Shown piece after piece: positions 7,567 through 31,623 of a stretch of 36,152 bases of DNA (its first letter is position 1; every line of letters begins with the position of its first letter). The notes beneath the pieces are model-generated. The model saw only the letters and a list, made by a program, of their open reading frames with translations. It ran no database searches and was not told where the DNA came from. The position numbers and the translations under genes were made by a program. This DNA comes from an uncultured Clostridia bacterium (GTDB taxonomy: Bacteria > Bacillota > Clostridia > Christensenellales > Borkfalkiaceae): the NCBI GenBank assembly GCA_944363255.1, contig CALVTZ010000001.1, positions 1 to 36,152 of the forward strand. The letters run 5' to 3'.

Positions 7567-7575
7567 AATACTCCT

Positions 7576-7746
7576 TTATTTTAACCAAACGTATATGAGC
7601 AGGCCTGCTACGATAAAACAGGCGATGATGAGCAGCACGCGGGGCATATACACCGAGAGCGCCGCTCGAATGGCTGCACGCCTCTCTTTGCGCGTGAGCC
7701 CCACCTTGTCCTTTTTTTTCACGGCGTACGGATCAAGGTTCTCCAT
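7576..7746 (-). CDS. Possible small tail-anchored membrane protein (56 aa from the ATG), or a frameshifted C-terminal membrane anchor of the upstream ATPase
   Basis: The C-terminal part of track ORF 7576..8238 reads MENLDPYAVKKKDKVGLTRKERRAAIRAALSVYMPRVLLIIACFIVAGLLIYVWLK, a basic segment followed by one clear TM helix. Its stop overlaps the SD of the protease gene. There is no convincing SD before ATG 7746-7744, and the frame stays open upstream across the ATPase stop codon. Confidence 0.35.
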   Translation of the reverse strand: MENLDPYAVKKKDKVGLTRKERRAAIRAALSVYMPRVLLIIACFIVAGLLIYVWLK

Positions 7747-7801
7747 ACTGTACACCGTGTGTCCGTCGTCAACGAACTTCGCTTTCTTCTTTTTCTTCGG
7801 C

Positions 7802-9265
7802 TTAGTCGTCGTAGGGCATTTTTCCTGCGGCAACTGTGTCAAATGCGTCTGCTGCGGGCTTTTCTGCAGGCTGTTCTCCTGCGGCGCGCTCGTCAGGCTT
7901 GACTGCTGCGGGCTCGTCATCGTCGTAGGGCATTCTTCCTGCGGCGACTGCTGCGGGCTCGTCTGCTGCAAGCTCGTCGGCAGGCTGTTCTCCTGCGCCG
8001 TCTGCTGCAAGCTCGTCTGCTGCGCCGCGCTTTCTTGTGAACAGTCCCTTGCACTTGGCTCCTGCTTTTGCAAGTCCGTGCTTACAGCTTGCGAAGGCTG
8101 CGATGATCTTTTGTTTTGCATTCTTTTTCGCCTTTGCCTCCTCTTCCATGCGAAGCCGCGCCTCTTCGAGGTCCGCAAACTCTGCATCGTATTCGTCAAG
8201 ATGCGCCATGACCTCTTCGTCATAGAGATGGCAGGCAACGTGGTGCCCGGGCGCCGCCTCGATGTAGGCAGGCTCTTTGAACTTACACACGTTCATGCAC
8301 TGCGCGCAGCGGGTGTGGAATTTGCAGCCCTTGGGCGGGTTTGCGGGCGAGGGAATGTCGCCCTCCAGAATGATGCGGTTCATCTTCACGTCCGGGTTGG
8401 GAACGGGGACGGCGGAGAAGAGCGCCTTGGTATAGGGATGCAGCGGGTTGGAGAAGATCTCGTCCGTTTCGCCCAGCTCCATCACGTTGCCAAGATACAT
8501 GACGAGGATCTGCTCGGTAATGTACTTGACGACGGAAAGGTCGTGCGAGATGAACACATAGGTGAGCCCGATGTTGTTCTGCAAGTCCTTCAACAGGTTG
8601 ATGATCTGTGCCTGAATGGATACGTCAAGTGCGGAGACGGGCTCATCGCAGATGACGAGTTTGGGCTGCACCGCGAGCGCGCGGGCAATACAGATCCTCT
8701 GGCGCTGTCCGCCCGAGAACTCGTGGGGATAGCGGTCGTAGTACTGCGGAGGAAGTCCGCACTTTTGCATGATGTCGAGCACGTAGTTGTACACTTCCTT
8801 CTTGGGAACGATCTTGTGCACGCGTACGGGCTCTGCGATGATGCTTCCCACCGTCATACGGGGGGGAAGGCTGGAGTAGGGATCCTGGAAGATGAGCTGA
8901 ATATCCGTGCGATATTTGCGCATCTGCTTCTTCTTGAGCTTGGTGAGCTCCTCCCCTTCGAAGAGGATGGAGCCGCCGTTTGCCTCGTACAGTTTGAGAA
9001 TGGTCCTGCCCAGCGTCGTCTTGCCGCAGCCCGATTCCCCCACGACGCCGATGGTCGTGCCCCGCTTGACCGCAAAACTCACATCGTCTACCGCTTTGAG
9101 GTTGACGATGGGCTTGCCGAGCAAGTTCTTCTTGATGGGGAAGTACATCTTGAGGTGATCGACTTTGAGAATGGTGTCGTCCTGCACTTCCGCTTCAAGG
9201 GGAACGTCGGAGAACATATTCGGGTCATTTGCGACCGTTTTCATGTCTTCGTTCAACTCTTCCAT
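7802..9265 (-). CDS. Opp/Dpp-type peptide ABC transporter ATP-binding protein (OppF-like) with a roughly 150-aa low-complexity C-terminal extension
   Basis: Walker A GESGCGKTT, signature FSGGQRQRICIARAL, Walker B LVICDEPVSALD, and the oligopeptide C-terminal motif NPLHPYTKAL...CKFHTRC. Start placed at ATG 9265-9263 (SD AAGGAA 7 nt upstream, 1 nt after the OppD-like stop). The track start 9286 has no SD. Confidence 0.9.
   Translation of the reverse strand: MEELNEDMKTVANDPNMFSDVPLEAEVQDDTILKVDHLKMYFPIKKNLLGKPIVNLKAVDDVSFAVKRGTTIGVVGESGCGKTTLGRTILKLYEANGGSILFEGEELTKLKKKQMRKYRTDIQLIFQDPYSSLPPRMTVGSIIAEPVRVHKIVPKKEVYNYVLDIMQKCGLPPQYYDRYPHEFSGGQRQRICIARALAVQPKLVICDEPVSALDVSIQAQIINLLKDLQNNIGLTYVFISHDLSVVKYITEQILVMYLGNVMELGETDEIFSNPLHPYTKALFSAVPVPNPDVKMNRIILEGDIPSPANPPKGCKFHTRCAQCMNVCKFKEPAYIEAAPGHHVACHLYDEEVMAHLDEYDAEFADLEEARLRMEEEAKAKKNAKQKIIAAFASCKHGLAKAGAKCKGLFTRKRGAADELAADGAGEQPADELAADEPAAVAAGRMPYDDDEPAAVKPDERAAGEQPAEKPAADAFDTVAAGKMPYDD
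7805..8020 (-). repeat. Imperfect tandem duplication (about 113-bp unit plus shorter internal repeats) encoding the Ala/Pro/Asp/Glu-rich tail of the OppF-like protein
   Basis: gtcgtcgtagggcatttttcctgcggcaactg (7805-7836) matches atcgtcgtagggcattcttcctgcggcgactg (7918-7949). caggctgttctcctgcg occurs at 7867 and 7981, and tctgctgcaagctcgtc at 7961 and 8001. At protein level this gives AAG(R/K)MPYDD twice and AAGEQPA(D/E) twice. Confidence 0.8.
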
Positions 9266-9266
9266 G

Positions 9267-10598
9267 TCAATTTCCTTGTTCATCATACAGATAGCAGGAG
9301 ACGTAGTGCGTGTCGCTCACGCGGATCATTTCGGGATAACGCCCTTCGCACGCCTCGGTGCATTGGTTGCAACGGTTTTTGAAATAACAGCAGTCGGGCA
9401 GGTTGATGGGATTGGGCACGCGGCCGGGAATGGAATAGAGCGGCTCGCGCGAATCGGAGGTGAGAAGAGGCTTGCTCTTTTGCAGTCCGATGGTGTAGGG
9501 GTGCATGGGATGATGGAAGATATCCTGCACCGTGCCCCGTTCGATGACCTTGCCCGCGTACATGACGACGACTTCGTCCGCCATCTCTGCGATGACGCCG
9601 AGATCGTGCGTGATGAGCATGATGGAACAGCCCTGCTTGCGCTGCAGATCTTTCAGCAGTTCGAGGATCTGCGCCTGAATGGTCACGTCGAGCGCCGTGG
9701 TGGGCTCGTCTGCGATGATGAGGCGGGGGTTGCCCGCGATCGCCATTGCGATCATCACGCGCTGGCGCATTCCGCCCGAGAGCTCGTGCGGGTAGCTGTC
9801 GTAGGTGTGTTCGGGCATGGAGATGCCCACCTTCTTGAGCATTTCGATGCTGTATGCGCGCGCGTCCTTCTTGGAGATGCCGGGCGTATGCAGGAAGGAG
9901 ACCTCGTCCAGCTGATAGCCGATGGTGAACACGGGGTTGAGGCTGGTCATGGGCTCCTGGAAGATCATGGTGATATCCTTGCCGCGCACCTTGTACAGCT
10001 CTCGCGTGGGCATCTTGGTGATGTCGTACGTCTTCTCCTCCATCTCGAAGAGCGGACGCCCCGCTTCACTCTTTGCCTGCACCTGTTCCATGACGGGGTT
10101 GCCCTCCTTGTCGAACAGGGGCTTGCCCTTCTTGTTCAGTTTCTGGCGCGTCTTGATGACGCGCTCGCCGTCCACTTCCTCATACTCCCAGACGGGGATG
10201 GGCTTGCCCTTTTCGTCCGTCTTGTAGTCCTCTGCGGCGAAGCGAATGGCGCCCTCCACGATCTGCCCCTGCGGGGCCTGGATGAGCTGCATGATGGAAA
10301 GCGACGTAACGCTCTTGCCGCAGCCCGACTCCCCCACGACGCCCACGATCTTGTTCTTGGGAATGTCGAAGGACACCCCGTTGACGGACATGACCGTGCC
10401 GTTGTCCGTGAAGAAGCAGGTTTTCAGCCCCTCGATCTCGACGATGTTGTTCTCGTCGCGCATCTCGGTGGTGTACTCCTCCGGGCTACGCTTGCGCCGC
10501 TTGAGCTTTTCGTAGTAGCGCATCTGCTTGATATTGTAGCGGATGATCTTACGGCTCTCGCGCAGCGATATATAGTTGGTAGTCTTCTTCCTTTTCAT
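9267..10598 (-). CDS. Opp/Dpp-type peptide ABC transporter ATP-binding protein (OppD-like) with a basic N-terminal extension and a roughly 70-aa insertion after Walker A
   Basis: [61 protein letters not shown] and HPYTIGL are present. The insertion [70 protein letters not shown] lies between Walker A and the Q-loop. Confidence 0.9.
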
Positions 10599-10617
10599 AG
10601 TGCCGCTCTTTTAAGTA

Positions 10618-11796
10618 CTATTTTTTCGCCTTGGGATCCATTGCGTCGCGCAAGCCGTCGCCCACGAAGTTGAAGCCGAGCACGGCGATGACGATGAGGA
10701 TACCCGCAGGCAGCCATACGTTGAGGTGATAGTTGAGGACGGCGGGGTCCTTGGAGAGTGCGATCATGGAGCCCCACGCCGCCTTGGGCGCCTGCACGCC
10801 GAGCCCGAGATAGCTGAGCGTCGATTCGTAGAGAATGACGCTGCCCAGCCCCAGCGTCATGGAGACGATGAGCTGCGGCATGACGTTGGGCACGAGGTGC
10901 TTGAAGATCTTGCGCCAGGTGGGAAGTCCCATGACTTCGGTCGCCGTGATATATTCCTGTTCTCGCAGCGATAGGATCTGACCGCGCACCATGCGCGCCA
11001 CGCCGCTCCAACTGAATATCGTTATGATCACCATGAGCACGTATATCTGTTCATCCGCACTCAGGTGCCATGAGTCTATCATTGCCGAGGCGATGAGCAG
11101 AATTGGCAGCGTGGGGATACAGTTGAAGATATCCACGATACGCATGATGATCTGGTCTACCCAGCCGCCGAAGTAGCCCGCCAGCCCGCCGAGGGCAATG
11201 CCGATGAGCGTTTCGAGTATGACGACGATGAAGCCGATCATGAGCGAGATCCTGCCGCCGAACATGAGGCGCACGAATACGTCCATGCCCTGGTCGTCCG
11301 TTCCCAGAAGGTGATCGGAGGAGGGATCTGCATAGCTGTTGAAGGAGTTCTGAATGGTGACCTCTTCCACAACGGTGATGAGCTGCTGATCCTCGCCGTC
11401 GCCCACATAGTGGTCGTAGTGATAGTCGAAGATATTGGTGACGGGCGTTCTGTCGATCTCCGTCTCCCCCCAGCGGCTGTACACCACGGGGCCGAGCACG
11501 GCGAAGAGGAAGAGCGCCACGATCATCACAAGTCCGACGATGGAGAGCTTGGAGCGGAAGAAGCGGCGAAGCACGAGGCGCAGCGGACTCATCTCTTTGT
11601 AAGACTCTGCCGCATCATCCTGCGCGTGCACCGCAAGCGCGCCCCCCTCTTCGGACACTTCCCCTTCGGGAAGAAGCCCCTCTTCTGCGTACACATCCCC
11701 ATCGGGAAGGCGCACGGTCTCCTCCTGCGCTTGGAGCGCCTCGGGCATGACCTCCTCTTCCATGGGCTGAAGTTGTTTGTTCTTGTCTTTTCTCAT
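10618..11796 (-). CDS. ABC transporter permease (OppC/DppC-like) with an acidic N-terminal extension
   Basis: Multi-TM protein with the BPD-transport EAA-type loop (REQEYITATEVMGLPTWRKIFKHLVPN). SD TAGGAG lies upstream of ATG 11796. It sits between the OppB-like and OppD-like genes. Confidence 0.9.
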   Translation of the reverse strand: MRKDKNKQLQPMEEEVMPEALQAQEETVRLPDGDVYAEEGLLPEGEVSEEGGALAVHAQDDAAESYKEMSPLRLVLRRFFRSKLSIVGLVMIVALFLFAVLGPVVYSRWGETEIDRTPVTNIFDYHYDHYVGDGEDQQLITVVEEVTIQNSFNSYADPSSDHLLGTDDQGMDVFVRLMFGGRISLMIGFIVVILETLIGIALGGLAGYFGGWVDQIIMRIVDIFNCIPTLPILLIASAMIDSWHLSADEQIYVLMVIITIFSWSGVARMVRGQILSLREQEYITATEVMGLPTWRKIFKHLVPNVMPQLIVSMTLGLGSVILYESTLSYLGLGVQAPKAAWGSMIALSKDPAVLNYHLNVWLPAGILIVIAVLGFNFVGDGLRDAMDPKAKK

Positions 11797-11806
11797 CGTT
11801 CAGCTC

Positions 11807-12814
11807 CTATTTGGAAAGTTTGACGCGAGGGTCTACGATGGAGTACATGATATCCGAGAACAGCGTTCCGATGACGGAGAGCACTGCAAGGAACATATTG
11901 TAACCCATGATGAAGGGAACGTCGCCGTCGCGCAGCGCCTGATATGCAAGGCGGCCGATCCCGTCGATACCAAAGCATTCCTCCGTGATCATCATGCCGC
12001 CGAAGAGTGAGGGCAGGATGCCCGCGAGCAGCGTTGCAAGGGGAATGAGGGTGTTGCGGAAGGCGTGTTTGTAGATGACCTTGCGCTCCGAAAGTCCCTT
12101 TGCGCGCGCCGTACGGATGTAGTCCGCGCCCAAAACTTCGAGGGTGTTCGTTCTCGTGTAGCGCATGAGACCGCCCAGCGAGAGGATGACCGTGACGAGG
12201 ATGGGAAGGATGAGGTGCTGCAAAATATCGCCAAAGCGCGACATCATCCCCAGGAAGTTATCCGCATAATTTTTGGAGGCGTAGATGAGTCCGTTCGCAG
12301 GCAGAATGCCCAGATCGACTGCGAACACCTTGACGGCGATGGCTGCGAAGAAGTAGGTGGGCAGCGCAAGACCGACCATGGTGAACACCGTTACCGTGTA
12401 GTCGCGCACGGAGTACTGGTGCGTCGCACTCGAAATGCCGAGCGGGATGGCGATGAGGAATTGCAGAATGGTGGCGACGATCGCGATGGCGAAGGAGATC
12501 CACATATTGCTGCTGATGACTTCCCCTACCGGCTTCTCATACTTGAAGGACATACCAAGATCGCCTTGGAAGAGATTTCCAAGCCACTTGAAGTAGCCCG
12601 ACAAGATGCCGACGAAGGAGTTGTCCCCAATGCCGTACAGCGCCTTGAAGTTATCGATGTCTTCCTGCGTGATCGTGCCCTGCGACAGTTGACTTGAAAA
12701 CTTGATGTCAACATAGTCCGTGGGCATGAGGCGCACCATGAAGTAGATGATGATGGACACGCCCAGGAGGACGATGATGGAGATCAGCAGTCGTTTTACG
12801 ATATATTTGAGCAT
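11807..12814 (-). CDS. ABC transporter permease (OppB/DppB-like)
   Basis: MLKYIVKRLLISIIVLLGVSIIIYFMVRLMP is a typical OppB N-terminus. Also present: ADYIRTARAKGLSERKVIYKHAFRN (EAA loop) and a C-terminal DPRVK motif. Confidence 0.92.
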   Translation of the reverse strand: MLKYIVKRLLISIIVLLGVSIIIYFMVRLMPTDYVDIKFSSQLSQGTITQEDIDNFKALYGIGDNSFVGILSGYFKWLGNLFQGDLGMSFKYEKPVGEVISSNMWISFAIAIVATILQFLIAIPLGISSATHQYSVRDYTVTVFTMVGLALPTYFFAAIAVKVFAVDLGILPANGLIYASKNYADNFLGMMSRFGDILQHLILPILVTVILSLGGLMRYTRTNTLEVLGADYIRTARAKGLSERKVIYKHAFRNTLIPLATLLAGILPSLFGGMMITEECFGIDGIGRLAYQALRDGDVPFIMGYNMFLAVLSVIGTLFSDIMYSIVDPRVKLSK

Positions 12815-12829
12815 AGTTTACCCGATTTC

Positions 12830-12858
12830 CGCCGCCGAACCCACAGGGCGCGGCGGCG
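12830..12858 (-). other. Intercistronic GC-rich stem-loop between the binding-protein and permease genes (possible mRNA-stabilising or partial-termination element)
   Basis: cgccgccg (12830-12837) pairs with cggcggcg (12851-12858) around a 13-nt loop. No T-tract follows on the minus strand. Confidence 0.4.
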
Positions 12859-12868
12859 TAATTGTTGT

Positions 12869-15508
12869 TTATTTCTCGATGATGAGCGAGAGTTTGTGAA
12901 TGTCGGCTACAAGCCCCTTGAACGCCGTGCGCTCATCCTTGGGCGTGAACGTCGCCTCGTCGATCTTGTTCGCGTTGTAGGCGAACAGGTCTTTACGCTG
13001 ATAGGTGGGAAGTTCGACTGCCATCTGCATGACGATGTCGAGCGCCTGCGAATACAGCTGCTTACGCGTGGATTGCACCGTCGTCTCGCGTGCCTTGTCG
13101 ATGAGATCGGACAGGTCGTTCAACAGACCGTATTCCACGTTGTACTTGCCGCCATTGTTCTGCTTGATGGCGTTGTAGCCCCAGTTGAGCGTGGACGTCG
13201 CCTTGGACTCCTTGTGGTAGACCTGATACATATCGGGATCGATGGTGGAGCTCCATGCAGCTGCCCAAACGGAGAGTGCACCGGTGGAGAGCTTGGAGAG
13301 CGCCTGCGCATCCGTCTTGACCGTGATGTTGAAGTGGTTGCGGTTGAGCACCTCTTGTGCGTGACGGAATGCCGCCCATGCGGGGTGATCCGTCTCCTCA
13401 CCTGCGACGACGAAGTCGATCTTGAGGGTGTTGGAGCCGTTGGTGTACACGCCGCTTGCATTTACGGTGTAACCTGCGTCCTCCACGAGCTGCTGAATGA
13501 AGGCGTCCTGCTCCACCTGCGTGAGCACGTCGCCCGCCTTCTTGCCAAGTCCGCGTACGTATCTTGCATAGGCGGGGTTTACGACGTCGAGGTTTGCGGG
13601 CACGGGGCCTGCAATGTAGGGATAGTAGGAGGTAGCGTTTTCGGGATAAGCCCAGCTCTCGCTCGACATGGAGCGGTAGAGCGGCGTAGCCTCCGTACCG
13701 TAGTACTCCACGCACTCAAGAATGTTGATGGAGTGCATGATCGCCTGACGTACGCCGAGCGCGGGAACGCGCGCCGCGTTTACGCCGATATAGCCGTAAC
13801 CCATCGTGGTGATGGACTGGTTGCCGATGCCGTCCTTGCGCTTGCCGTTGAGCTCGTCGATCGTCTCGGGCTTTGCGTTGGGTTCGACGAAGTCCATTTC
13901 ACCATTGTAGAGCGCGTTGAGCATATTCTGCGAGGAAACGACCTGATAGCGCAGCTTCTTGATGAGGGGGGTGCCCGTCATGAGGAAGTAAGGGTTGCGC
14001 TCGAAGTAGATAACGCCGTTCTGATAGAAGTCGCCTGCGGAGATCCCCGAGATGCCGCCCGAAGACTTGCTGGCTGCATAGGGGCCTGCGCCCACGGGCA
14101 CGCCGATCTTATTGGACGCCTTGACGACGTTGTTGTAGAAGTCCTGGCTGCCGCGCTCTACGCCGAAGTTGCGCTCGTAGTCGAATGCCGCAACGTGCTC
14201 TGCATCCGAATAGTAGTGCATGGGCGCGATGGGAAGCCCGAAGTTCCAGATCGCCTTGGGGTCGACCTTCTTGATGGTGATGGAGAGCACCTCGTTGCCC
14301 GAAATGACCTGCGTGTTGTTGCTGCCATCCGCATATACGGGCACGCCGTATTCCTTGCCGTTTACGGTGACGGGCTGCGTTCTGTTTGCAAACTTGATGC
14401 CGCTGATGTTGGGATATGTGACTTCGTGCGTTTCGTTGTACTTCGCGAACTCCTCGTTCGTGAGGTAGGTGAACAGCTTGGAGCCCGTCACCCAATAGGT
14501 GAGCACTTCCTCGATGGCGTTGGGGATCTTGTCGTTATACACGAGGTTGATCGCGCGCTCCTTGGTGTACTTCTTGAGCTCTGCCACGTTGTTGGTGAGC
14601 GAGGATTCGAGCTTGGCCTCCTTGCGGTTCCACGTGATATAGCCCTCGTTGTAGAGGAACACTTCCACGTCCGTGGTGAAGAGCCCCTTGTACTCTTCCT
14701 TCTTCTCGTCCTGGAACACCATCGTGTCGTAGGAGTTGAGGGAGTTCGACCAGTCCGTCTCCAGCTCTTCGCGGAAGGAGACGCCGTTGCGCCCGTTTGT
14801 GTCTGCGACGAGGTTGAAGTCGTTTACGATATTTTTGTACGCTTCGCCCTTGCTGTCCTGATATTCCTGCAGCTTTGTGCGGAAGGTAGTAAGATCAAGC
14901 CCTGCCGTGCCCGCTTCCCTGAGAATGTCGTATGCAGCGGTGCTCAGGTTGTCGATACGGCTTCTTGCCGCATTTTCAAACTGCTGCATGAAGGCGTCCT
15001 GCTCGTACTCGTCTGCCTCCTGCGTGCGGTACTCCTGCAGACCGACGATGTCGGTGGAGTAGATGGTGCTCGAGCCCGTGTACACGGGATCGAGATACAC
15101 GTAGAAGTTGAAGAGAACGTCCTTCATGGAGAGGTACACGCCATCCGAGAAACGGATGTTGTTCTTGAGTACGAACTTGTACTCCGTGCGCTGTGCCTCG
15201 CCCTCGCCCGTCGTCTTTTCCTCGTAGTCGAGCACGATGCACGCCTCATCCTCGCCGTAGGCGACGTTGCCGTCCTCATCGCTGGAGAGCATACTCAGCT
15301 GAGTAAGCCCCGTAATGGTGCCGTCCGGGCCCGTCGTGTAGAAGAAGGGATTGAATACTTTATCCACTTCCAGCGTGGAGAACACCACGGGATCGTTTTC
15401 GTTATCGAACGTCTTTGCAGGGCCGCCCTTGCCGCCGCAGCCGACAAAGCTCACTGCGACCGCTGCAGCCAGAAGACCTGCTGTCAATTTCGCTGCCTTG
15501 AATTTCAT
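12869..15508 (-). CDS. Oversized (879 aa) family-5 (OppA/DppA-like) ABC substrate-binding lipoprotein
   Basis: Signal peptide plus lipobox MKFKAAKLTAGLLAAAVAVSFVGCGG. SD AAAGGAGAA upstream. Family-5 SBP-like core (GPYAASKSSGG..., YFERNPYF, MGYGYIGVNA, SSTIDPDMYQVYH). It lies immediately upstream of the cognate permeases. Confidence 0.88.
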   Translation of the reverse strand: MKFKAAKLTAGLLAAAVAVSFVGCGGKGGPAKTFDNENDPVVFSTLEVDKVFNPFFYTTGPDGTITGLTQLSMLSSDEDGNVAYGEDEACIVLDYEEKTTGEGEAQRTEYKFVLKNNIRFSDGVYLSMKDVLFNFYVYLDPVYTGSSTIYSTDIVGLQEYRTQEADEYEQDAFMQQFENAARSRIDNLSTAAYDILREAGTAGLDLTTFRTKLQEYQDSKGEAYKNIVNDFNLVADTNGRNGVSFREELETDWSNSLNSYDTMVFQDEKKEEYKGLFTTDVEVFLYNEGYITWNRKEAKLESSLTNNVAELKKYTKERAINLVYNDKIPNAIEEVLTYWVTGSKLFTYLTNEEFAKYNETHEVTYPNISGIKFANRTQPVTVNGKEYGVPVYADGSNNTQVISGNEVLSITIKKVDPKAIWNFGLPIAPMHYYSDAEHVAAFDYERNFGVERGSQDFYNNVVKASNKIGVPVGAGPYAASKSSGGISGISAGDFYQNGVIYFERNPYFLMTGTPLIKKLRYQVVSSQNMLNALYNGEMDFVEPNAKPETIDELNGKRKDGIGNQSITTMGYGYIGVNAARVPALGVRQAIMHSINILECVEYYGTEATPLYRSMSSESWAYPENATSYYPYIAGPVPANLDVVNPAYARYVRGLGKKAGDVLTQVEQDAFIQQLVEDAGYTVNASGVYTNGSNTLKIDFVVAGEETDHPAWAAFRHAQEVLNRNHFNITVKTDAQALSKLSTGALSVWAAAWSSTIDPDMYQVYHKESKATSTLNWGYNAIKQNNGGKYNVEYGLLNDLSDLIDKARETTVQSTRKQLYSQALDIVMQMAVELPTYQRKDLFAYNANKIDEATFTPKDERTAFKGLVADIHKLSLIIEK

Positions 15509-22933: not shown

Positions 22934-22959
22934 AAAAAACGGGCGCCCGAAGGCGCCCG
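22934..22959 (-). terminator. Rho-independent terminator after the zinc-ribbon gene
   Basis: cgggcgcc (22940-22947), cgaa, ggcgcccg (22952-22959). On the minus strand it is followed by TTTTTT (22939-22934). Confidence 0.85.
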
Positions 22960-22975
22960 CAAAGCAAAATAGCGT

Positions 22976-23305
22976 TTACTTTTTGTTGAACACGATGAAG
23001 AGGACGATGAACACGACCGCCGCGACGATGCCCACGATGGTGGTGACGAACTTGATCTTCTTCATCTTTTCGGGATCCATGGGCTTGTAGCCCACGGGCT
23101 CCAACTTCCCCTCGCAGTAGGGGCACTTGGTCATGTGATCGAGCACGCTCTTGCCGCAGTGCGGACAGTCGACGGCGTGCTTTTTGAGGCGGGCGAGCCG
23201 CTTTTCACGGCGCGCTTCCGCACGCTCCGCTTCGCGCGCCTCGCGCTCCGCTTCGCGTTCTGCCCGTTCGATCTCCTTCTCTTCCTTGGTGAGTTTTCTT
23301 CCCAT
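22976..23305 (-). CDS. Small zinc-ribbon membrane protein (charged coiled-coil N-terminus, CxxC...CxxC, C-terminal TM helix)
   Basis: EREAEREAREAERAEARREKRLARLKK, then CPHCGKSVLDHMTKCPYCEG, then the TM segment FVTTIVGIVAAVVFIVLFIVF. Confidence 0.7.
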   Translation of the reverse strand: MGRKLTKEEKEIERAEREAEREAREAERAEARREKRLARLKKHAVDCPHCGKSVLDHMTKCPYCEGKLEPVGYKPMDPEKMKKIKFVTTIVGIVAAVVFIVLFIVFNKK

Positions 23306-23347: not shown

Positions 23348-23584
23348 TCACATGGATTCGTGAATGGTGCGGGAGATGACGTCGTCCTGCTGCTCCTTGG
23401 TGAGCTTGTTGAAGTTGACGGCATACCCGCTCACGCGCACGGTGAGCTGGGGATATTTTTCGGGATGCGCCTGCGCGTCGAGCAGCGTATCGCGGTTGAA
23501 CACGTTTACGTTGAGGTGATAGCCGCCGTCGCCCACATAGGCGTCGAGCATATTGACGAGGTTTTCCGCTTGCTGTTTGGACAT
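23348..23584 (-). CDS. grcA: Stand-alone glycyl-radical domain protein (GrcA/YfiD-like) corresponding to the missing C-terminus of the adjacent PflB
   Basis: [51 protein letters not shown] carries the RVSGYAV glycyl-radical fingerprint. It has its own SD, AAGGAGGA, 7 nt upstream of ATG 23584. Confidence 0.9.
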
Positions 23585-23606
23585 GATTTCTTCCTCCTTG
23601 AAATAA

Positions 23607-25643
23607 TTAGTCGTCGTCCTTGCCCAGCGAATTGGGCGTGATGGAGAAGGTGTTGGAGATGCCGTCGCGCGAGTAGTCGTACGGGAGCTTGGCGACCGAT
23701 TCGAGGGACGCCAGCGCGCCGTTGTGATCGCGCCCGTGCATGGGATTCGCGCCCGGTGCGAGGGGCTGACCTGCCCGCCGCCCGTCCGGGGTGTTGCCCG
23801 TCTTTTTGCCGTACACCACGTTGCTCGTGATGGTGAGAATGGACATGGTGGGCACCGATTCGCGGTAGGTGAAGTGCGAGCTCACCTTGTTCATGAACGT
23901 CTTGACGAGCCACACGGCGATCTCGTCTGCGCGGTCGTCGTTGTTGCCGTACTTGGGATAGTCGCCCTCGATCTTAAAGTCGGTGACGATGCCCTTCTCG
24001 TTGCGGATGGGGTACACCTTGGCGTACTTGATGGCGGAGAGGCTGTCTGCCGCGCAGGAGAGCCCCGCCACGCCCGTTGCGAAGAAGCGGCGCACCTTGC
24101 TGTCGTGCAGCGCCATCTCCAGCGCCTCGTAGCAGTACTTGTCGTGCATATAGTGGATGACGTTGAGCGTGTTCACGTAAAGCCCTGCGAGCCACGTCAT
24201 CATTTGGTCATACTTTTTGAGAACGTCCTCGTAAACGAGGGCACCATCGCCCAGGACGGGGGCAAATTCGGGGGAAACTTGCAAGGGGTTTCCCGCCTTG
24301 TCGCAGCACAGCTCGTCCTTGCCGCCGTTGATGGCATACAGCAGGCACTTGGCGAGGTTGGCGCGCGCACCGAAGAACTGCATATCCTTGCCCACGCGCA
24401 TACTCGATACGCAGCAGGCGATGCAGTAGTCGTCCCCCATCTCGGGGCGCATGAGGTCGTCGCTCTCGTATTGAATGGCGCTCGTTTGAATGGAGATCTC
24501 CGCGCAGAAGGTCTTGAAGGCGCGGGGCAGCCGCTTGGACCAGAGCACCGTGAGGTTGGGCTCGGGCGCGGGACCGAGGTTGACGAGGGTGTGCAGGATG
24601 CGGAAGCTGTTCTTAGTGACGAGCGTTCTGCCGTCCACGCCCATGCCGCCGATGGATTCCGTCACCCAGGTGGGATCGCCGCTGAACAGTTCGTTGTACT
24701 CGCGGATGCGCATAAACTTGACGACGCGCAGCTTCATGACGAAGTGGTCGATGAGCTCCTGCGCCGCCTCCTCCGTGAGCGTACCCTCGTCGAGGTCGCG
24801 CTGGATGTAGATGTCGAGGAAGGTGGAGTTCCTGCCGATGGACATTGCCGCGCCGTTCTGATCTTTGACGGCGGCAAGATAGCCGAAGTACAGCCACTGC
24901 ACCGCCTCCTGCGCCGTCTCTGCGGGGCGGGAGAGGTCGAAGCCGTAGCACGCCGCCATCTCCTTGAGCTGCTTCAACGCCTTCACCTGCTCGGCGATCT
25001 CCTCGCGGTCGCGGATCTTATCGGGCGTCATGTCGCCCGCGAGCTGCGCCTTGTCCTCCTCCTTCTTTTTGATGAGGTAGTCCACGCCGTACAGCGCCAC
25101 GCGGCGATAGTCGCCCACGATGCGCCCTCTGCCGTAGGTATCGGGCAAGCCCGTGAGGATATGCGCGTGGCGAGCGAGCCGCATCTCGGGCGTGTATGCG
25201 TCGAACACGCCGTCGTTGTGCGTCTTGCGGTACTTGGAGAAGATCTCCTTCACCTCGCCGTCCAGCTCGTAGCCGTACATTTTGAGCGCCTCTTCCGCCA
25301 TGCGGATGCCGCCGAAGGGCATGAGCGCGCGCTTGAAGGGAGCGTCCGTCTGCAGCCCCACGATCTTTTCCAGATCCTTGTTGAAGTACCCCGCTCCGTG
25401 CGAATTGACGCGGGAGACGATCTTGGTGTCCGCGTCGTACACGCCGCCGCGGGCGCGCTCCTCGCGGGTGAGCTCCATCACCTGCGCCCAGAGCGCCTTG
25501 GTCGCCTCCGTTGCGGGCGCAAGGAAGGCGGAATCCCCCTCGTAGGGGGTATAGTTGCGCTGAATGAAGTCCCTTACGTCCACTTCATCCTGCGCCCATC
25601 TGCCGCGCTCAAAGGAGCGCCATGCCCGTTCATTCATCATCAT
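23607..25643 (-). CDS. pflB: Formate C-acetyltransferase (pyruvate formate-lyase) catalytic core lacking the glycyl-radical domain
   Basis: PFL-like throughout, with active-site CC in [23 protein letters not shown]. It ends at ...[13 protein letters not shown]-stop, the position where E. coli PflB continues into the Gly-radical domain. Confidence 0.92.
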
Positions 25644-25681: not shown

Positions 25682-25954
25682 TTATGCCTGCGTCTTTGCG
25701 TCCAGCCAGAGGGCGAGGATCTCTTCGGGCTGAAAGCCCGTGCAGCGCGCCACTTCCTCCCCGTCGCGGCAGACGATGAGGGTGGGAACGCGGTCGATGT
25801 GCAGCGCCGCCACCCGCTCCCCCGTCTCCTCGTTCACTTCGAGGTGTTCCACGTCCAGCCCGCGCTCCGCCGCAAGTTTTTTGACGAGCGGGAGCAGCGT
25901 ATAGCAGTTTGCGCACGACTCCCCGCTCACTTCAAGCAGTGTATAGTTTGCCAT
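25682..25954 (-). CDS. Thioredoxin-fold protein (CxxC = CANC), 90 aa
   Basis: MANYTLLEVSGESCANCYTLLPLV...RVPTLIV (cis-Pro motif). SD GGAGGG. The ATG shares one base with the pflA stop (TAATG at 25952-25956). Only the C-terminal 90 codons of track ORF 25682..26323 look real. Confidence 0.8.
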   Translation of the reverse strand: MANYTLLEVSGESCANCYTLLPLVKKLAAERGLDVEHLEVNEETGERVAALHIDRVPTLIVCRDGEEVARCTGFQPEEILALWLDAKTQA

Positions 25955-26682
25955 TACTCCCTCCCGTACTTGCCCGCGCGCAAAATGCGCTTGGCGTTTT
26001 CCACGCGCTCGCGTTCGGGCGGCTTCACCCCTTCGAGCGGATAGCTGCGCCCCAGCGCTCGGTACTTCTGCTCGCCCATGGTGTGATAGGGCAGCACCTC
26101 CACCTTCTCCACGTTGGAGAGGGTGTCGAGGAACGCCCGAAGGCGCAGCAGCGCCCCGTCGTCGTCCGTCAGCCCGGGCACGAGCACGTGCCGCACCCAC
26201 ATGGGCTTGCCCCGCTCGCTCAAAAAGCGGGCGAAGGCGAGGGGCGCCGCGTTCTCCCGCCCCGTGAGCTGCCTGTGCGCGTCCGCGTCGATGTGCTTGA
26301 TGTCGAGCAGGACGAGGTCGCACACCGCAAGCAGCTGCTCGTAGCGCGCGTCCCCCTGCTCAAAGCAGATGCCCGAGGTGTCCAGACAGGTGTGCACGCC
26401 CTTTTTTTTGAGCAGCGTGAACAGCTCGATGAGAAAATCAAGTTGGAGCAGCGGTTCGCCCCCCGTTGCGGTGACGCCGCCCCCGCCCGTGAAGTAGCTC
26501 TTATAGCGCATTGCCTCGAACGCGACTTCCTCGGCGGAGAGCATCTTGCCGCCCACCACCCAGGTATCGGGATTGTGGCAGTACTTGCAGCGCATGGGGC
26601 AGCCCTGAAAAAAGACGACGAACCGAATGCCCGGCCCGTCTACCGTGCCGAAGGATTCATAAGAATGGATATTCCCCGTCAT
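25954..26682 (-). CDS. pflA: Pyruvate formate-lyase activating enzyme (radical SAM)
   Basis: GTVDGPGIRFVVFFQGCPMRCKYCHNPDTW contains the CxxxCxxC motif. Start moved to ATG 26682 (MTGNIHSYES, SD GGAGGG 4 nt upstream). Confidence 0.9.
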   Translation of the reverse strand: MTGNIHSYESFGTVDGPGIRFVVFFQGCPMRCKYCHNPDTWVVGGKMLSAEEVAFEAMRYKSYFTGGGGVTATGGEPLLQLDFLIELFTLLKKKGVHTCLDTSGICFEQGDARYEQLLAVCDLVLLDIKHIDADAHRQLTGRENAAPLAFARFLSERGKPMWVRHVLVPGLTDDDGALLRLRAFLDTLSNVEKVEVLPYHTMGEQKYRALGRSYPLEGVKPPERERVENAKRILRAGKYGRE

Positions 26683-26715
26683 ACGCCCTCCCCTCTCTGC
26701 CCGCCCCGCGCGTGC

Positions 26716-26757
26716 GGGGAACAAAGGGCAGTTTCTACCTTACGATAAAAACTGCCC
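26716..26757 (-). terminator. Terminator-like hairpin inside the pfl leader (possible attenuator)
   Basis: In the minus-strand RNA, GGGCAGUUU (26757-26749) pairs with AAACUGCCC (26734-26726) around a 14-nt loop, followed by UUUGUU. It lies about 35 nt upstream of the pflA ATG. A second hairpin, CCCCGC-ACGC-GCGGGG (26719-26704), abuts the SD. Confidence 0.45.
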
Positions 26758-26842: not shown

Positions 26843-26871
26843 ATCATAGCACACCGCCGCCATTCTGTCAA
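26843..26871 (-). promoter_or_regulatory. Consensus promoter of the pfl operon
   Basis: Minus strand: TTGACA (26871-26866), 17 nt, TGc-TATGAT (26850-26843). The predicted leader is about 155 nt. Confidence 0.7.
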
Positions 26872-26961: not shown

Positions 26962-29481
26962 TCAGAGCGCGAACACGATCTCATACCCGCCGTCCACGTC
27001 CATGGGGACGGAGACGAAGAGCACGGCGGCGTCGGGCGCCTGCCCCGTGGAGAGCGGGAACGCCCCCTCTGCGCGGCGGCTCTTGCAGAATGCCGCGTCC
27101 CGTCCGTTTACCGTGATGCGGCGGATCTTGTCCGCCTCGGGCAGCAGGTGGAAGCGGATGAGCGCCTCGCGCTCGGTGACGGCGCGCGCCCCCGAGAACG
27201 TCCCCTCTGCGGGAGCAAAGTTGAGCACGAAGGCGTTTTGCGCCTCGTCGAAGCGGGCGGTGAAGGCGCTCTTGCGCAGCGCGCCCGTCTTGTAAGCGAC
27301 GCTCTCGCCGTCGTCCTCATACAAATACCCCGCGCCCTCCTGCGTGCGCGAAGGGTAGTAGTCGAACACCAGCCTGTCCCAGCTCTGCTCGCGCGTGTTC
27401 TTCGCCTCGTACGCGAGCGGGATGAGCGCGCCCAGCCGCACGAAGAGGGGCATGGCGTGCAGGGGGTATTCCTTGACGACGGTGCGCCCGCCGCGGTAGA
27501 TCTTGCCGTCGAAGAGATCCATCCAGCTCCCCTCGGGCAGGTAGACGTGCCGCTTGTCGTCGCGGTGCGCCCTGCCGCAGTACAGCATACACGTCGCCTC
27601 GCCCTCCGCCTGGAAGTACTCGATGACGACATGGTGCGAAACGCCGGGCGCGAGGTTGCCAAGGCGCAGGTCGGATGCGGCGTGGCAGGACTTGTCCTCC
27701 ACCACCTTTACGCCGTCCACCCACACCGTTGCGCCGTCGTCGCTGCGCAGGATGAGCTCCGTCTCCTCCTCAAAGCGCAGCTGCGTTTCGAAGCGGGCGG
27801 AGAAGTTGTACACGGGCACGCCCTCCTCGGGCGCGGTGTGCGAGCAATACAGGGAGAGGGTGGGATATTCCGCCCTGCACACAGCCTCGCCCGCAAGCTC
27901 CGTCCCATTAAAGTACGTCGCCTGCACGGGCGCAACGTAGCAGCGGCCGTGCACGGGGCGGGGCGGGGTGCCCGCAACGGGCGCAACGAGCAGATCGCCG
28001 ATGAGGTATTCCCCCATCTCCTTGAGCGCGCGCTTGTCCTGCGGGTATTGCATTCCCAGCGGGCGGCAGATGGGCAGCCCCTCCTCATAGCTCTCGTACG
28101 CATAGCGATAGAGCAGCGGAAGCAGCCGATAGCGCAGGTTGTAGTATTCGCGCACGATGCGCAAGGTCTCCTCGTCGTAAGCCCACGGCTCGCGGAAGCG
28201 CACCACGTCCTTGGTGCAATGCGGGCGGAATACGGGCGAGAGCGCGCCAAACTGCATCCAGCGGATAAACGTCTCCTTGTCGGGATTGCCCGTGTGTCCG
28301 CCGCAGTCGGCATTCACGTAGGGAATGCAGTTGCTCCCCCCGCGCAGCAGGTTTTCCACCTCCGTTGCGATGGAATCCATGCCGCTGGGGATATCCCCCG
28401 TCCACTGAACGGAATAGCGGTGGCTCGCGGGGCTGTTGATGCCCTGATAGCTGCCGTTTGCGATGTTGTCCACGTTGCCCATGACGACGGGGCGGCGGCT
28501 CGCCCTGCCCTCCGCCGTGCGCTCGTAGAAGTGCTTGGTGATCTCATGGAAGAGGTACAGCCCCAGCGTCTCGGGGTGCACGCCCTTGGCAGGGCTGATG
28601 AGGCGCGTGATCCAGTTTCTGTCGTACCACCACGTATCCAGCCCCAGCTCCATGAGGGCGGTGAGGTTTTGCTCCCTGTACCTGACTTCCGCAGGCGAGA
28701 ACACGCTCTTCGCCCCCTCCACGGGCTCCGGGTGATCGTTGAACATGATCTCCACGCCGTGGCTGTGCGCGAACGCCAAAAAGCGCTTCATATCGGGGAA
28801 GAGCTGCGTATCGATGTCATAGCCGATGCCGCGGTCGGACGCCTTGCGCCAATCGGTGTCGATGACCAGATTGTCGAGGGGAACGTCGTGCGCCTCGTAG
28901 TCGAGAATGACCTGCTTCGCGCTCTCCTCGCTGTATGCAAAGTACTTGGAATTCCAGCTTCCGAGCGTGGCAAGGCGCACCAGCTCCGCCCTGCCCGTGA
29001 GCTGCACAAAGAGTTTGCGCAGCAATTTCGCGTCCCCTTCGCTGAGCAGCAGATATACGTCCTGTACCCGTTCTTCCACAACGTATCCGCTATCCTTGAC
29101 TCTGCCGCGATAGGTGTACCCGCCCTTGGGCAGGCGGATGCGCGGGGCGTCCGCCACGGGGAACACCGCGGGCGTTGCCGAGAGCGCGGGCAATTCGCCG
29201 CTGCTGCCCTTCCTGCGGAAGCGATAGACGCACTCGCCCTCCTTCCACAGCGCGATGCCGTTCAGCCCCCGTTCCCCCTCCGGGACGACGAGGGTGTACG
29301 CGCCGAAGAGCAGCTTGTTTTCGCGCTGCTCCACCTGGGGCGCCGCCTCCGCAAATTGCGCACGGCAGGGCACGACGAGGGTGTCCTCATCGCAGAACTT
29401 CCCGCCCTTTGCTGCCTCCAGGCGCACGATCCTCTCGTCGAGGAACTGCACCCGAACCTTTCCGAACAAAAATGCTTTCAT
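26962..29481 (-). CDS. Glycoside hydrolase family 31 (alpha-glucosidase/alpha-xylosidase type) with a C-terminal PA14-like domain
   Basis: GH31 signatures are GLDTWWYDRNW (nucleophile region) and YSVQWTGDIPSGMDS. The PA14-like stretch is LRSDDGATVWVDGVKVVEDK...VVIEYFQAEGEATCMLY. Confidence 0.85.
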   Translation of the reverse strand: MKAFLFGKVRVQFLDERIVRLEAAKGGKFCDEDTLVVPCRAQFAEAAPQVEQRENKLLFGAYTLVVPEGERGLNGIALWKEGECVYRFRRKGSSGELPALSATPAVFPVADAPRIRLPKGGYTYRGRVKDSGYVVEERVQDVYLLLSEGDAKLLRKLFVQLTGRAELVRLATLGSWNSKYFAYSEESAKQVILDYEAHDVPLDNLVIDTDWRKASDRGIGYDIDTQLFPDMKRFLAFAHSHGVEIMFNDHPEPVEGAKSVFSPAEVRYREQNLTALMELGLDTWWYDRNWITRLISPAKGVHPETLGLYLFHEITKHFYERTAEGRASRRPVVMGNVDNIANGSYQGINSPASHRYSVQWTGDIPSGMDSIATEVENLLRGGSNCIPYVNADCGGHTGNPDKETFIRWMQFGALSPVFRPHCTKDVVRFREPWAYDEETLRIVREYYNLRYRLLPLLYRYAYESYEEGLPICRPLGMQYPQDKRALKEMGEYLIGDLLVAPVAGTPPRPVHGRCYVAPVQATYFNGTELAGEAVCRAEYPTLSLYCSHTAPEEGVPVYNFSARFETQLRFEEETELILRSDDGATVWVDGVKVVEDKSCHAASDLRLGNLAPGVSHHVVIEYFQAEGEATCMLYCGRAHRDDKRHVYLPEGSWMDLFDGKIYRGGRTVVKEYPLHAMPLFVRLGALIPLAYEAKNTREQSWDRLVFDYYPSRTQEGAGYLYEDDGESVAYKTGALRKSAFTARFDEAQNAFVLNFAPAEGTFSGARAVTEREALIRFHLLPEADKIRRITVNGRDAAFCKSRRAEGAFPLSTGQAPDAAVLFVSVPMDVDGGYEIVFAL

Positions 29482-29552
29482 GATCTCACTCCGATCTCTC
29501 TCTTATATTTACCGCTTGCGCGATATTTTCTCTTATTCTTTGCGGGGAACGC

Positions 29553-31493
29553 TCACGCGTTCTCCAATACGAGCACCCCGAAGGGCGCGATCTCTACTCT
29601 GCCCGTGAGCGTTCTCTCCCCGAGCACGTCGTAGCACGTTTTGTCGAGCTGAACATAGCCCGCCTTGCCGCACACCTCCACCGCGATCACGCCGCTATGC
29701 GCCCCCGTGCGGCGGGTGAGCACGAGATTTTCGCTCCCCTCCAGAACGGGCGCAAGCCCTGCAAGGCGGCGCAGCGACTGCGGCGAGGGCAACGTGCCCA
29801 GAAGGATGACCTTGCCCTTGCCCACCCTGCGGCAGGTGGCGGCAGCCAGCCCTTCGAACTCACCGCGGTAGCGGGCGAGCACCTCCGTGCCCTCCTGCGC
29901 CTCGAACGCGTCGTACGTCTTTGCCGCGCCGAAGGGGGTGCCGTCCTCCCATTCCGCCGTGAACACGTCGTTTGCGACGGGCTTTTGATACTTCACGTAC
30001 ACGCCCGCCAGCTCTTCGAGGAAGGAATAGGGCGCATGGGTGTACTTGGAGGCATTGGCGTCCATCACGTCCGTCATGGGGCCGACGATCCACGTGCCCC
30101 CCTCCTTCACCCACGCGATGACGCGCTCCTTCAGCCCGTTTTCGTCCGCCGTGGTGAGGAAGGGCGAGAGCAGCACCTTGTACCCTTCGAGCGCGTGCGG
30201 GGTGTCGATGACGTCCACGTTGTAGTGGCGGAAGGCGGCGTGCACGCCGTCTGCGACTTCCGCGCGGTAGTCGAAGTTTTTGAGGATGGGCGCGTTTTCA
30301 AAGTTGACCGCCGCCGTATTCGAATAGTGCAGCGCGATGTCCGAGCGCACGAAGCTGCCCTGCAGGAACTCAGCAGCCCGCTGCAGCTCTTCGCTCGCGC
30401 GGGCGACCTCCTCCGAGACGCGGTACGGCCTTCCCGCCGTGGTGAGGAGCGCGCCGTGCGCCAGCTCGTGCCCTGCGGGGTGTGCGCGGAAGAGCCAATA
30501 CAAGTTCATTTCCGCCCCGCGCGCGATGGGCAGCCAGGTGTTTGCATAACAGTTTCCCGTGGAACGGTACCCAAATTCCGCAAACGTACTGCCATTCCAG
30601 CCCACTTGCGTCTCCGTCACCCAATAGGGCTTGTCCTTGACGCAGCGCATGAAGTCGTGATCGAACGTAGTGCGGGGCAGCTCTTCCTGCGGGTTGTAGT
30701 GGTTGTACTGCACCACGTCGAGCGACTCGTTGATCTTGTAGTAGTCGAGCAGCGGCGTCTGCATCATGTCCGTACCCACGTTCTTGCAGCCGTAGCGGTG
30801 CAGGATGTCCGCCTGTTCCTTGCAGTAGGAAAAGATCTGCCCGCTCTGGAAGTGCCACCACGCCGTGCGCAGCGAGGGGTGCCGCCACTCGCCCGGGTAG
30901 GGCGGCTCGATCTCATCGAAGTTGTCGTAGTCGAGCGACCAGCGCGCCATGCCCCACGCGCGGTTGAGCGCGGCAATGTCGCCGTAGCGCGCCTTGAGAT
31001 GGTCGCGGAAGGCGCGCTTGCACTGCGGGCAGTAGCAGCCGTCGCCGTAGGGGAAGAACTCGTTGTCGATCTGCCAGCCGATGATGGCGGGGTGCCCTGC
31101 GAGCGCCTTTGCCTCCTCTTCCACGATGCGGCGGTTCTTTTCGCGCATGACGGGCGAGGTCTTGCAGGGGTGGCAGCGGGAGGAGATCTTCGTCCGCTCG
31201 CCAAGGGGCGTCACCGCGCGCGTCTCCTCGTACTTGTGAAAGAGCCAGCGCGGGGGCGTGCAAGTGGGCGTACAGAAGATGACGGAAATGCCCGCCCCAT
31301 ATAATTTGTCGAGCACGCGCGCGAATTTTTCAAAGTGGAACTCCCCCTCTTTCGGCTCCATCGTGCTCCACGCAAACTCCCCGATGCGCAGGGTGTTCAC
31401 GCCAAGTTGCTTGCAGCGGGCGATGTCGCGCTCGACTTCGCTCTCCTCCCAAAGTTCGGGATAGTACGCTGCGCCGACGTAAATTTTACTCAT
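29553..31493 (-). CDS. Glycoside hydrolase family 42 beta-galactosidase
   Basis: MSKIYVGAAYYPELWEESEVERDIARCKQLGVNTLRIGEFAWSTMEPKEGEFHF is a typical GH42 N-terminus. Also present: WQIDNEF (acid/base Glu) and the zinc-type Cys cluster CHPC...CYCPQC. Start moved to ATG 31493 (SD GGAGAA); the track start 31589 lies inside the promoter region. Confidence 0.88.
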   Translation of the reverse strand: MSKIYVGAAYYPELWEESEVERDIARCKQLGVNTLRIGEFAWSTMEPKEGEFHFEKFARVLDKLYGAGISVIFCTPTCTPPRWLFHKYEETRAVTPLGERTKISSRCHPCKTSPVMREKNRRIVEEEAKALAGHPAIIGWQIDNEFFPYGDGCYCPQCKRAFRDHLKARYGDIAALNRAWGMARWSLDYDNFDEIEPPYPGEWRHPSLRTAWWHFQSGQIFSYCKEQADILHRYGCKNVGTDMMQTPLLDYYKINESLDVVQYNHYNPQEELPRTTFDHDFMRCVKDKPYWVTETQVGWNGSTFAEFGYRSTGNCYANTWLPIARGAEMNLYWLFRAHPAGHELAHGALLTTAGRPYRVSEEVARASEELQRAAEFLQGSFVRSDIALHYSNTAAVNFENAPILKNFDYRAEVADGVHAAFRHYNVDVIDTPHALEGYKVLLSPFLTTADENGLKERVIAWVKEGGTWIVGPMTDVMDANASKYTHAPYSFLEELAGVYVKYQKPVANDVFTAEWEDGTPFGAAKTYDAFEAQEGTEVLARYRGEFEGLAAATCRRVGKGKVILLGTLPSPQSLRRLAGLAPVLEGSENLVLTRRTGAHSGVIAVEVCGKAGYVQLDKTCYDVLGERTLTGRVEIAPFGVLVLENA

Positions 31494-31543
31494 CCTGTTT
31501 TCTCCGTGCGGCGGCTGAATTTCGATATGCCTTTGCGCCCTCC

Positions 31544-31573
31544 ATCTTACCACTTTCGCCCCGCTTCTGTCAA
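31544..31573 (-). promoter_or_regulatory. Promoter of the GH42/GH31 genes
   Basis: Minus strand: TTGACA (31573-31568), 18 nt, TGg-TAAGAT (31552-31544). Confidence 0.55.
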
Positions 31574-31623
31574 GACGGAAAAGGAACATTTCCGCCCGAA
31601 ACGGGCAAATTTCCGCACCCCTC

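Follow-up and report, generated by a model that had tools for sequence, protein, structure and literature searches.

A pyruvate formate-lyase divided over two adjacent genes, probably a two-polypeptide enzyme, in an uncultured Clostridia bacterium and its relatives

Can a pyruvate formate-lyase (PFL) gene that ends before its radical segment still encode part of a working enzyme? PFL is the founding glycyl radical enzyme. On a contig of an uncultured Clostridia bacterium of the family Borkfalkiaceae (GenBank assembly GCA_944363255.1, contig CALVTZ010000001.1, positions 1 to 36,152), the pflB gene stops short of the glycyl radical segment, and a small open reading frame (ORF) directly downstream encodes the segment that is missing. 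This 36-kb contig, hereafter the window, is the sole part of the genome covered by the analysis. The arrangement could represent an enzyme of two polypeptides, a spare part next to an idle gene, a single protein restored by recoding, or a broken gene. We consider it quite probable that the window operon encodes an obligate PFL of two polypeptides, as judged from gene structure, profile matches and the comparison with related loci.

The genes concerned are listed here in the order pflA to small gene:

25954..26724, minus strand: pflA, pyruvate formate-lyase activating enzyme (radical S-adenosylmethionine, SAM); the coordinates are those of the longest ORF
25682..25954, minus strand: small gene of a putative thioredoxin-fold protein (90 amino acids, aa; SCANC motif) with weak thioredoxin matches
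25643..23607, minus strand: pflB core, the putative large subunit (678 aa), with the PFL barrel and the catalytic Cys410-Cys411 and without the glycyl radical segment
23606..23585, minus strand: intergenic spacer of 22 nucleotides (nt), ttatttcAAGGAGGAagaaatc, carrying the Shine-Dalgarno (SD) sequence AAGGAGGA, read directly from the sequence
23584..23348, minus strand: gene of the putative small subunit (78 aa, GrcA3 family), counterpart of PFL residues 680-759

The core ORF terminates at ...SLGKDDD, followed by TAA. The 78-aa ORF contains the motif RVSGYAV and ends in HESM. Its ATG lies 7 nt downstream of AAGGAGGA and 25 nt past the first base of the core stop codon, hence the two ORFs are in different frames. 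The initial annotation had described the stop, the 22-nt spacer with its SD, the 78-aa ORF with RVSGYAV and the differing frames, and all of these were recovered on the minus strand. By comparison with PFL, the 78-aa product consists of an N-terminal helix, strand beta10, the radical loop RVSG53YAV and a C-terminal helix. RVSGYAV is therefore absent from the polypeptide that forms the PFL barrel and lies on the separate 78-aa product, with G53 as its glycine. Within the window operon, the small ORF is indeed the only radical domain, as had been stated. A radical-SAM activase for PFL is encoded two genes upstream of the core. The pflA product reaches 309 bits against TIGR02493 (PFLA, cut-off 231.75) and matches Pfam Radical_SAM and Fer4_12, with the true start probably at the ATG at 26682.

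The two products partition a complete PFL. The Pfam model Gly_radical is matched at positions 2-50 by the core and at 51-106 by the small ORF, and TIGR01255 (formate C-acetyltransferase, profile length 744) at positions 1-664 and 665-744, respectively. Core and small product together tile the PFL profiles without gap or overlap. Even alone, the core scores 1079.1 bits against TIGR01255 (cut-off 994.2) and matches Pfam PFL-like at E=1e-211. In a global alignment to Escherichia coli PflB each part is 65% identical. The core retains the counterparts of C418/C419 (C410/C411), R176 (R174) and R435 (R427), and W333, F327 and F432 are also conserved. At the junction, the last core residue D678 corresponds to E679 of E. 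coli PflB and M1 of the small protein to V680, and G53 corresponds to G734. The small ORF aligns to residues 684-759 of the Protein Data Bank (PDB) entry 1H16 and to residues 68-127 of YfiD. The cut had been placed at the boundary of the glycyl radical domain. In detail, the cut falls in the middle of the Pfam Gly_radical model. The structured radical domain of the YfiD type starts about 14 residues further downstream (PFL 693), so that the small protein also carries the helix PFL 684-692.

The family of the small protein is already catalogued as NCBIfam GrcA3. The small ORF matches NF038360 (GrcA3) at profile positions 2-78 of 78 with 158.7 bits, a narrow margin over the cut-off of 158, and the orthologues of Amygdalobacter and Breznakia fall just under it (154-155 bits). 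The comparison with GrcA/YfiD made in the initial annotation was apt, given the name of the NCBI model. The match to GrcA/YfiD itself (TIGR04365) covers only positions 65-126 and stays at 97 bits, below the cut-off of 170. The small ORF has no counterpart of YfiD residues 1-60. For the core alone, an AlphaFold2 model (55-sequence alignment) has a predicted local distance difference test score of 83.6 and a predicted template modelling (TM) score of 0.87, and superposes on E. coli PFL (2PFL) with a TM score of 0.90 at 64% identity. Model confidence is lower at 603-610, 628-648, 661-663 and 670-678, parts of the last ~75 residues. These segments might pack against the missing C-terminal segment, a slight hint from the model that would fit a need for the small subunit.

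At first sight, a stop inside a normally continuous gene, seen in a lone window, suggests either an ordinary pflB that decays as a pseudogene after a recent nonsense mutation or frameshift, or a mistake in the assembly. Contigs of five independent DNA metagenome runs (X1-X5; chicken, bird and other gut samples and one synthetic community) span the junction, and in all of them the stop codon, spacer and start codon are free of substitutions and indels. A contig from RNA sequencing (X8, 23491-23618) also spans the junction with 0 differences. Sequencing or assembly error was rejected as an explanation on these contigs from five DNA runs and two RNA runs at the junction. RNA-derived contigs cover both the core gene and the small gene, and both are likely expressed and co-transcribed. 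Compared with fused PFL genes, the junction differs by more than a point change: inserted sequence supplies a stop codon, an SD and a start codon, which also argues against a lesion.

The comparison of related genomes extends the same pattern. A genome scan was based on one genome per species and the best 80 loci, with 80-89% identity. These loci stem from Candidatus Gallimonas (closest, 89%), Coproplasma, Scatosoma and metagenome-assembled genomes (MAGs) labelled Christensenellaceae, and from the gut of chicken, mouse, human, rabbit and deer. The cut is at the same site in 76 of the 80 species-level genomes. The best 120 database matches to the core are all 672-688 aa long and end in ...LGK plus one to a few mostly acidic residues. 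The best 120 matches to the small ORF are mostly stand-alone proteins of 76-79 aa, several of which, in Clostridia MAGs, carry the NCBI annotation autonomous glycyl radical cofactor GrcA3 or GrcA. When the 78-aa protein was used as query against representative sequences, fragments and miscalled ORFs (65-440 aa) made up most of the matches, which makes this search unusable for counting independent stand-alone families.

A set of 79 non-redundant split loci was assembled from the resolvable loci of the scanned genomes, the window and other lineages. All 79 carry an SD-like motif at most 18 nt from the ATG of the small gene, and their small proteins are 76-80 aa long. At a dS of ~0.8, the core has a median pairwise dN/dS (nonsynonymous over synonymous substitution rates) of 0.11 and the small gene one of 0.05; purifying selection acts on both. 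The order pflA, thioredoxin-like gene, core and small gene also occurs in unrelated gene neighbourhoods (loci L001 and L003), and the same four-gene cassette is present in cultured Amygdalobacter nucleatus (Oscillospiraceae), Breznakia and Traorella. Judged by sequence, the split PFL is a conserved and widespread design, not a peculiarity of the window. A pseudogene in decay was ruled out by the conserved cut and the low dN/dS. The cut shared by 76 of 80 species and by other families, the widely varying spacers with an SD for each small gene and the strong purifying selection on both parts leave a lesion or error with a negligible probability. The same evidence, together with the varied frames, the intact catalytic residues and the presence in distant Bacillota, strongly supports the earlier suggestion of an evolved two-polypeptide enzyme rather than a nonsense mutation.

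The split could also exist at the DNA level only, if programmed frameshifting, read-through or protein splicing yielded a single polypeptide. The short spacer of the window (22 nt) and the different frames of its two ORFs do resemble some recoding sites. Across the 79 loci, however, the spacer ranges from 9 to 628 nt (median 49), and the frame offset of 0, 1 or 2 is spread evenly, with 28, 28 and 23 loci, respectively. At L013, there is no small gene within the 795 nt between the core and the contig end. No single recoding event could be conserved under such free variation of spacer length and frame. Every small gene has a canonical SD and ATG, and a 22-nt spacer is too small for an intein. 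A single polypeptide is thus very improbable, and both recoding and error or decay can be regarded as effectively excluded.

The spacers show a further feature in Gallimonas-type loci (L008, L009, L013, L017, L018, L022 and L083). There, the spacer starts at ~5020-5035 in each locus and opens with a conserved hairpin directly 3' of the core stop codon (TTCACG..TTTCTTTT / AAAAGAAA..CGTGA). These spacers have grown to 200-800 nt through repeat-like, GC-rich palindromic blocks, and the window has no such hairpin. The hairpin could be an attenuator that sets the ratio of core to small protein, or the blocks could be small mobile repeats. Among the matches to the small ORF, the 111-aa protein P0121 has the top bit score (174) yet only 54% identity, which points to an atypical radical-domain protein or to one with a partial duplication.

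For a split core found in nature, a structure is already available. The PDB entry 38la contains a 687-residue chain, made of a 21-residue tag and the natural 666-aa core of Amygdalobacter nucleatus, annotated as formate acetyltransferase. The native sequence is 99-100% identical to the A. nucleatus protein and its end, ...SLGKED, is the same cut as in the window. Its source differs from that of the window core in belonging to another family, the Oscillospiraceae. Neither 38la nor a second entry, 38lb, is in the Foldseek library of PDB entries first released up to 8 April 2026, so 38la is probably a later release; no paper was found for either. Both Amygdalobacter type strains excrete formate (PMC11318147). 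A. nucleatus is among the formate producers whose growth is inhibited by hypophosphite, a PFL inhibitor, and Amygdalobacter PFL peptides were detected in vaginal samples (PMC12208373). This physiology is consistent with an active split enzyme without being proof of it.

The main rival to a two-subunit PFL is that the small protein is a spare part which rescues a full-length PFL encoded at another site of the genome, with the adjacent truncated core inactive or otherwise employed. The NCBI family name, autonomous glycyl radical cofactor GrcA3, implies as much, and a full-length enzyme could be encoded beyond the window contig, the only part of the genome covered. YfiD also binds truncated PFL poorly in E. 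coli. In contrast, core and small protein partition PFL exactly, whereas a spare part of the YfiD type overlaps the oxygen-cleaved PFL. The core keeps all catalytic residues at a dN/dS of 0.11. Core and small gene are adjacent, downstream of pflA, across orders of Bacillota. No second locus was found in any of the best 80 genome matches, a listing that more distant paralogues would escape. On balance, the spare-part explanation seems improbable, with a small but real chance of being correct.

Several points nevertheless weigh against an obligate two-polypeptide enzyme. Biochemical or structural data on a complex of core and small protein were not found in the searchable sources. With the genome known from one 36-kb contig, a second full-length pflB elsewhere is possible, and a second PFL may likewise exist in the formate-producing Amygdalobacter strains. 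For 38la, the PDB matches list core chains only and no small-subunit chain, and co-purification is not documented. The RNA evidence consists of assembled metatranscriptome contigs, which can contain DNA. Truncated E. coli PFL bound YfiD poorly and was poorly activated (PMC8683613). Efficient assembly in the window would thus depend on putative features, one of which could be the additional helix at the N-terminus of the small subunit. On the other hand, an artificial combination of E. coli PFL(1-695) and YfiD had wild-type activity once activated (PMC8683613), which by analogy demonstrates that a two-piece PFL is feasible.

How would a PFL of two polypeptides work? One promoter would transcribe all genes of the operon, and the small gene would be translated from its own SD. 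The core would supply the barrel, the substrate sites and the Cys410-Cys411 pair, and the 78-aa protein the short helix, the tenth barrel strand, the G53 radical loop and the C-terminal helix. PflA would abstract hydrogen from G53, either on the free small subunit or on the complex. The small subunit would dock non-covalently into the core and place the radical next to Cys411, after which catalysis would proceed as in E. coli PFL. Oxygen destroys PFL by cleavage of the chain at the radical glycine. After such damage, replacement in the two-piece enzyme could be limited to the 78-residue subunit. We infer complex formation, activation in trans, the exchange of damaged subunits and a role of the thioredoxin-like protein. 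The initial annotation had proposed that the oxygen-sensitive module is replaceable by design, which we retain as a hypothesis about the rationale of the split and not as a result.

Is the split a one-way event? Four related loci carry fused PFL genes of 760-771 aa with 81-85% identity (L027 3001-5250; L034, L053 and L063, each 3001-5253). Their position was assessed in a bootstrapped neighbour-joining tree of fused and split forms (200 replicates), rooted on E. coli as one distant outgroup. The four fused genes are nested in the split clade, and none of the 200 replicates places them outside the split crown. Just two split loci are without a thioredoxin-like gene, and L027, L034 and L053 form a group with these two in 197 of 200 replicates; L063 groups with Coproplasma-type loci (181 of 200). 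The sister lineages, Amygdalobacter and Erysipelotrichaceae, are all split. The linker of L053, ...SLGKDDD-GTTD-QQAENLV..., reads like the joined ends of a split pair. Because they are nested inside the split clade, the fused forms look like re-fusions, and the simplest reading of the sequences would be an old fission and then two or more re-fusions.

The gene between pflA and the core might be related to the divided state. Its ATG overlaps the pflA stop codon (TAATG). The 90-aa product matches TIGR01068 at E=1.6e-8 with 34.6 bits, far under the cut-off of 96.8, and is accordingly not a canonical thioredoxin. The CxxC motif, a proline at the thioredoxin cis-Pro position and the motif G[YF]QPEEI..W, a C-terminal motif proper to this thioredoxin-like family, are kept in at least 95% of 83 orthologues (e.g., L001 3713-3997, L085 3421-3750, L087 3556-3894 and L088 3601-3927). 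In a count over 85 split and four fused loci, 83 of the split ones carry the gene in the position between pflA and core, and all four fused ones lack it (Fisher p = 6e-6, not corrected for shared ancestry). By this distribution, the thioredoxin-like gene is linked to the split state. Its product may re-reduce oxidised active-site cysteines or serve activation. A broader and much more tentative proposal is that the cassette is a PFL built for repair. The radical subunit would be disposable, charged by PflA off the enzyme and swapped after oxygen damage, with the thioredoxin-like protein resetting the oxidised Cys pair. The split would then be reversible and the thioredoxin gene functionally tied to it. 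We regard this full scheme as possible and rather doubtful.

A second class of cores also ends without the glycyl radical segment. These proteins have 14-35 extra residues after ...ALGK[DE][DE] (P0441, P0486, P0487, P0495, P0412, P0413, P0471 and P0494; locus L090 3501-6719). Many of the tails end in a cluster of cysteines (GCCE, CxC), e.g., ...VFMGDLNIQLDAGCCESNIN, and others have no cysteine. At L090, the one locus examined, the order is core, 78-aa GrcA3 and pflA, and there is no thioredoxin-like gene. That a cysteine-rich tail replaces the thioredoxin-like gene is not claimed, since several tails are free of cysteine. The PDB chain 38lb_A (739 residues) is another PFL, in which ...ALGKS is followed by 53 residues without a match to the small ORF. 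This chain may be a member of the second class; its 53-residue tail did not align with that of a tail-type core. The link of the thioredoxin-like gene to the split, the apparent re-fusions and the second class of cores without the radical segment are new in this analysis.

Beyond the cassette, the following features of the window could belong to the same transcription unit:

26843..26871, minus strand: promoter-like site (TTGACA-17-TGnTATGAT) upstream of pflA; consensus scan, pattern match only
22976..23305, minus strand: gene of a small zinc-ribbon protein (109 aa) with weak Pfam Zn_ribbon matches, 42 nt downstream of the small subunit gene
22939..22960, minus strand: terminator-like hairpin followed by a T-run; consensus scan, pattern match only

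The promoter-like site has 11 of 12 consensus matches and an extended -10 TG, and is a candidate operon promoter. The hairpin has a 9-bp stem with 8 G-C pairs, then TTTTTT, and is a candidate end of the transcription unit. The zinc-ribbon gene precedes this hairpin and may be a member of the same unit. Its product is charged in its N-terminal half, contains a zinc ribbon (CPHC...CPYC) and has a C-terminal stretch that is hydrophobic, and a similar gene also follows the small subunit gene in L001. The pfl operon is flanked by genes of the Tex and HlyIII families, likewise in L001. Other parts of the window (9267-15508 and 26962-31589, both on the minus strand) have a gene content ordinary for gut Clostridia. 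The surrounding genes encode an Opp-type peptide ATP-binding cassette transporter (ATPase, two permeases and an 879-aa binding protein), and a glycoside hydrolase family 42 beta-galactosidase with an adjoining further large ORF is also nearby. For three long plus-strand ORFs (442-2310, 2458-7308 and 7526-9382; 622, 1616 and 618 aa), Pfam gave no match at E<=1e-5. The first two overlap no minus-strand ORF of at least 250 aa, and the three may be real uncharacterised large proteins.

A natural two-piece PFL would matter for enzymology and for annotation. Two PFL questions have been argued from artificial constructs, namely how the activase gains access to a glycine buried in the barrel and how YfiD docks on the damaged enzyme. 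The natural form would provide a clean system, with the radical domain free, the cut set by evolution and fused close relatives as controls. Hundreds of database entries named formate C-acetyltransferase in gut and vaginal Bacillota would be incomplete without the neighbouring "GrcA". It would then be misleading to count GrcA-type genes as a sign of oxygen-tolerance repair in facultative anaerobes. One carrier of the split is Amygdalobacter (BVAB2), for which PFL is under discussion as a drug target in bacterial vaginosis (PMC12208373), and the true subunit composition would therefore matter for inhibitor and structural work. The thioredoxin-like gene gives a fresh starting point for asking how such enzymes deal with oxidation.

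A 2026 review of glycyl radical enzymes mentions only YfiD, as a spare part for oxygen-cleaved PFL (PMC13450708), and a 2025 review attributes such cofactors to some facultative anaerobes (PMC12288474). A natural two-subunit or split PFL is not described in the searchable literature, which excluded two relevant YfiD papers, and the names GrcA3 and GrcA2 occur in no paper of it. The small ORF matches the model NF038360 end to end, although its name, autonomous glycyl radical cofactor GrcA3, describes a stand-alone cofactor. No searchable text states that the PFL next to GrcA3 is without its radical segment or that the pair is obligate.

The closest known system is E. coli GrcA/YfiD, together with phage T4 Y06I. 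These are also small separate proteins with an RVSGYAV loop that PflA can activate and that complete the PFL active site (PMC8683613, PMC13450708), and the small ORF is identical to YfiD residues 68-127 at 43 of 60 positions. In E. coli, however, the spare part comes into play only once oxygen has cleaved the full-length PFL, whereas the adjacent PFL gene in the window never encodes the segment. YfiD has 127 aa, with a disordered N-terminal stretch of 60 residues, and overlaps residues 693-733 left on the damaged enzyme. The small protein of the window has 78 aa, starts at the equivalent of PFL 680-692 and abuts the core exactly. The hosts differ as well, being strict anaerobes for the split PFL and a facultative anaerobe in the case of E. 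coli. The artificial pair of PFL(1-695) and YfiD resembles the window in being a two-piece PFL with the radical domain in trans. That construct is cut 16 residues further downstream, and its YfiD binding was too weak to measure (PMC8683613). The natural cut leaves PFL 680-695, including the helix 684-692, on the small piece, in an arrangement kept by selection. In benzylsuccinate synthase and 4-hydroxyphenylacetate decarboxylase, the radical glycine is on the large subunit and the small subunits are accessory, often with Fe-S clusters. Both of these glycyl radical enzymes, the former of the composition alpha-beta-gamma, need small extra polypeptides (PMC13450708). The PFL of the window would differ from such multi-subunit enzymes in that its small subunit is itself the radical-bearing segment.

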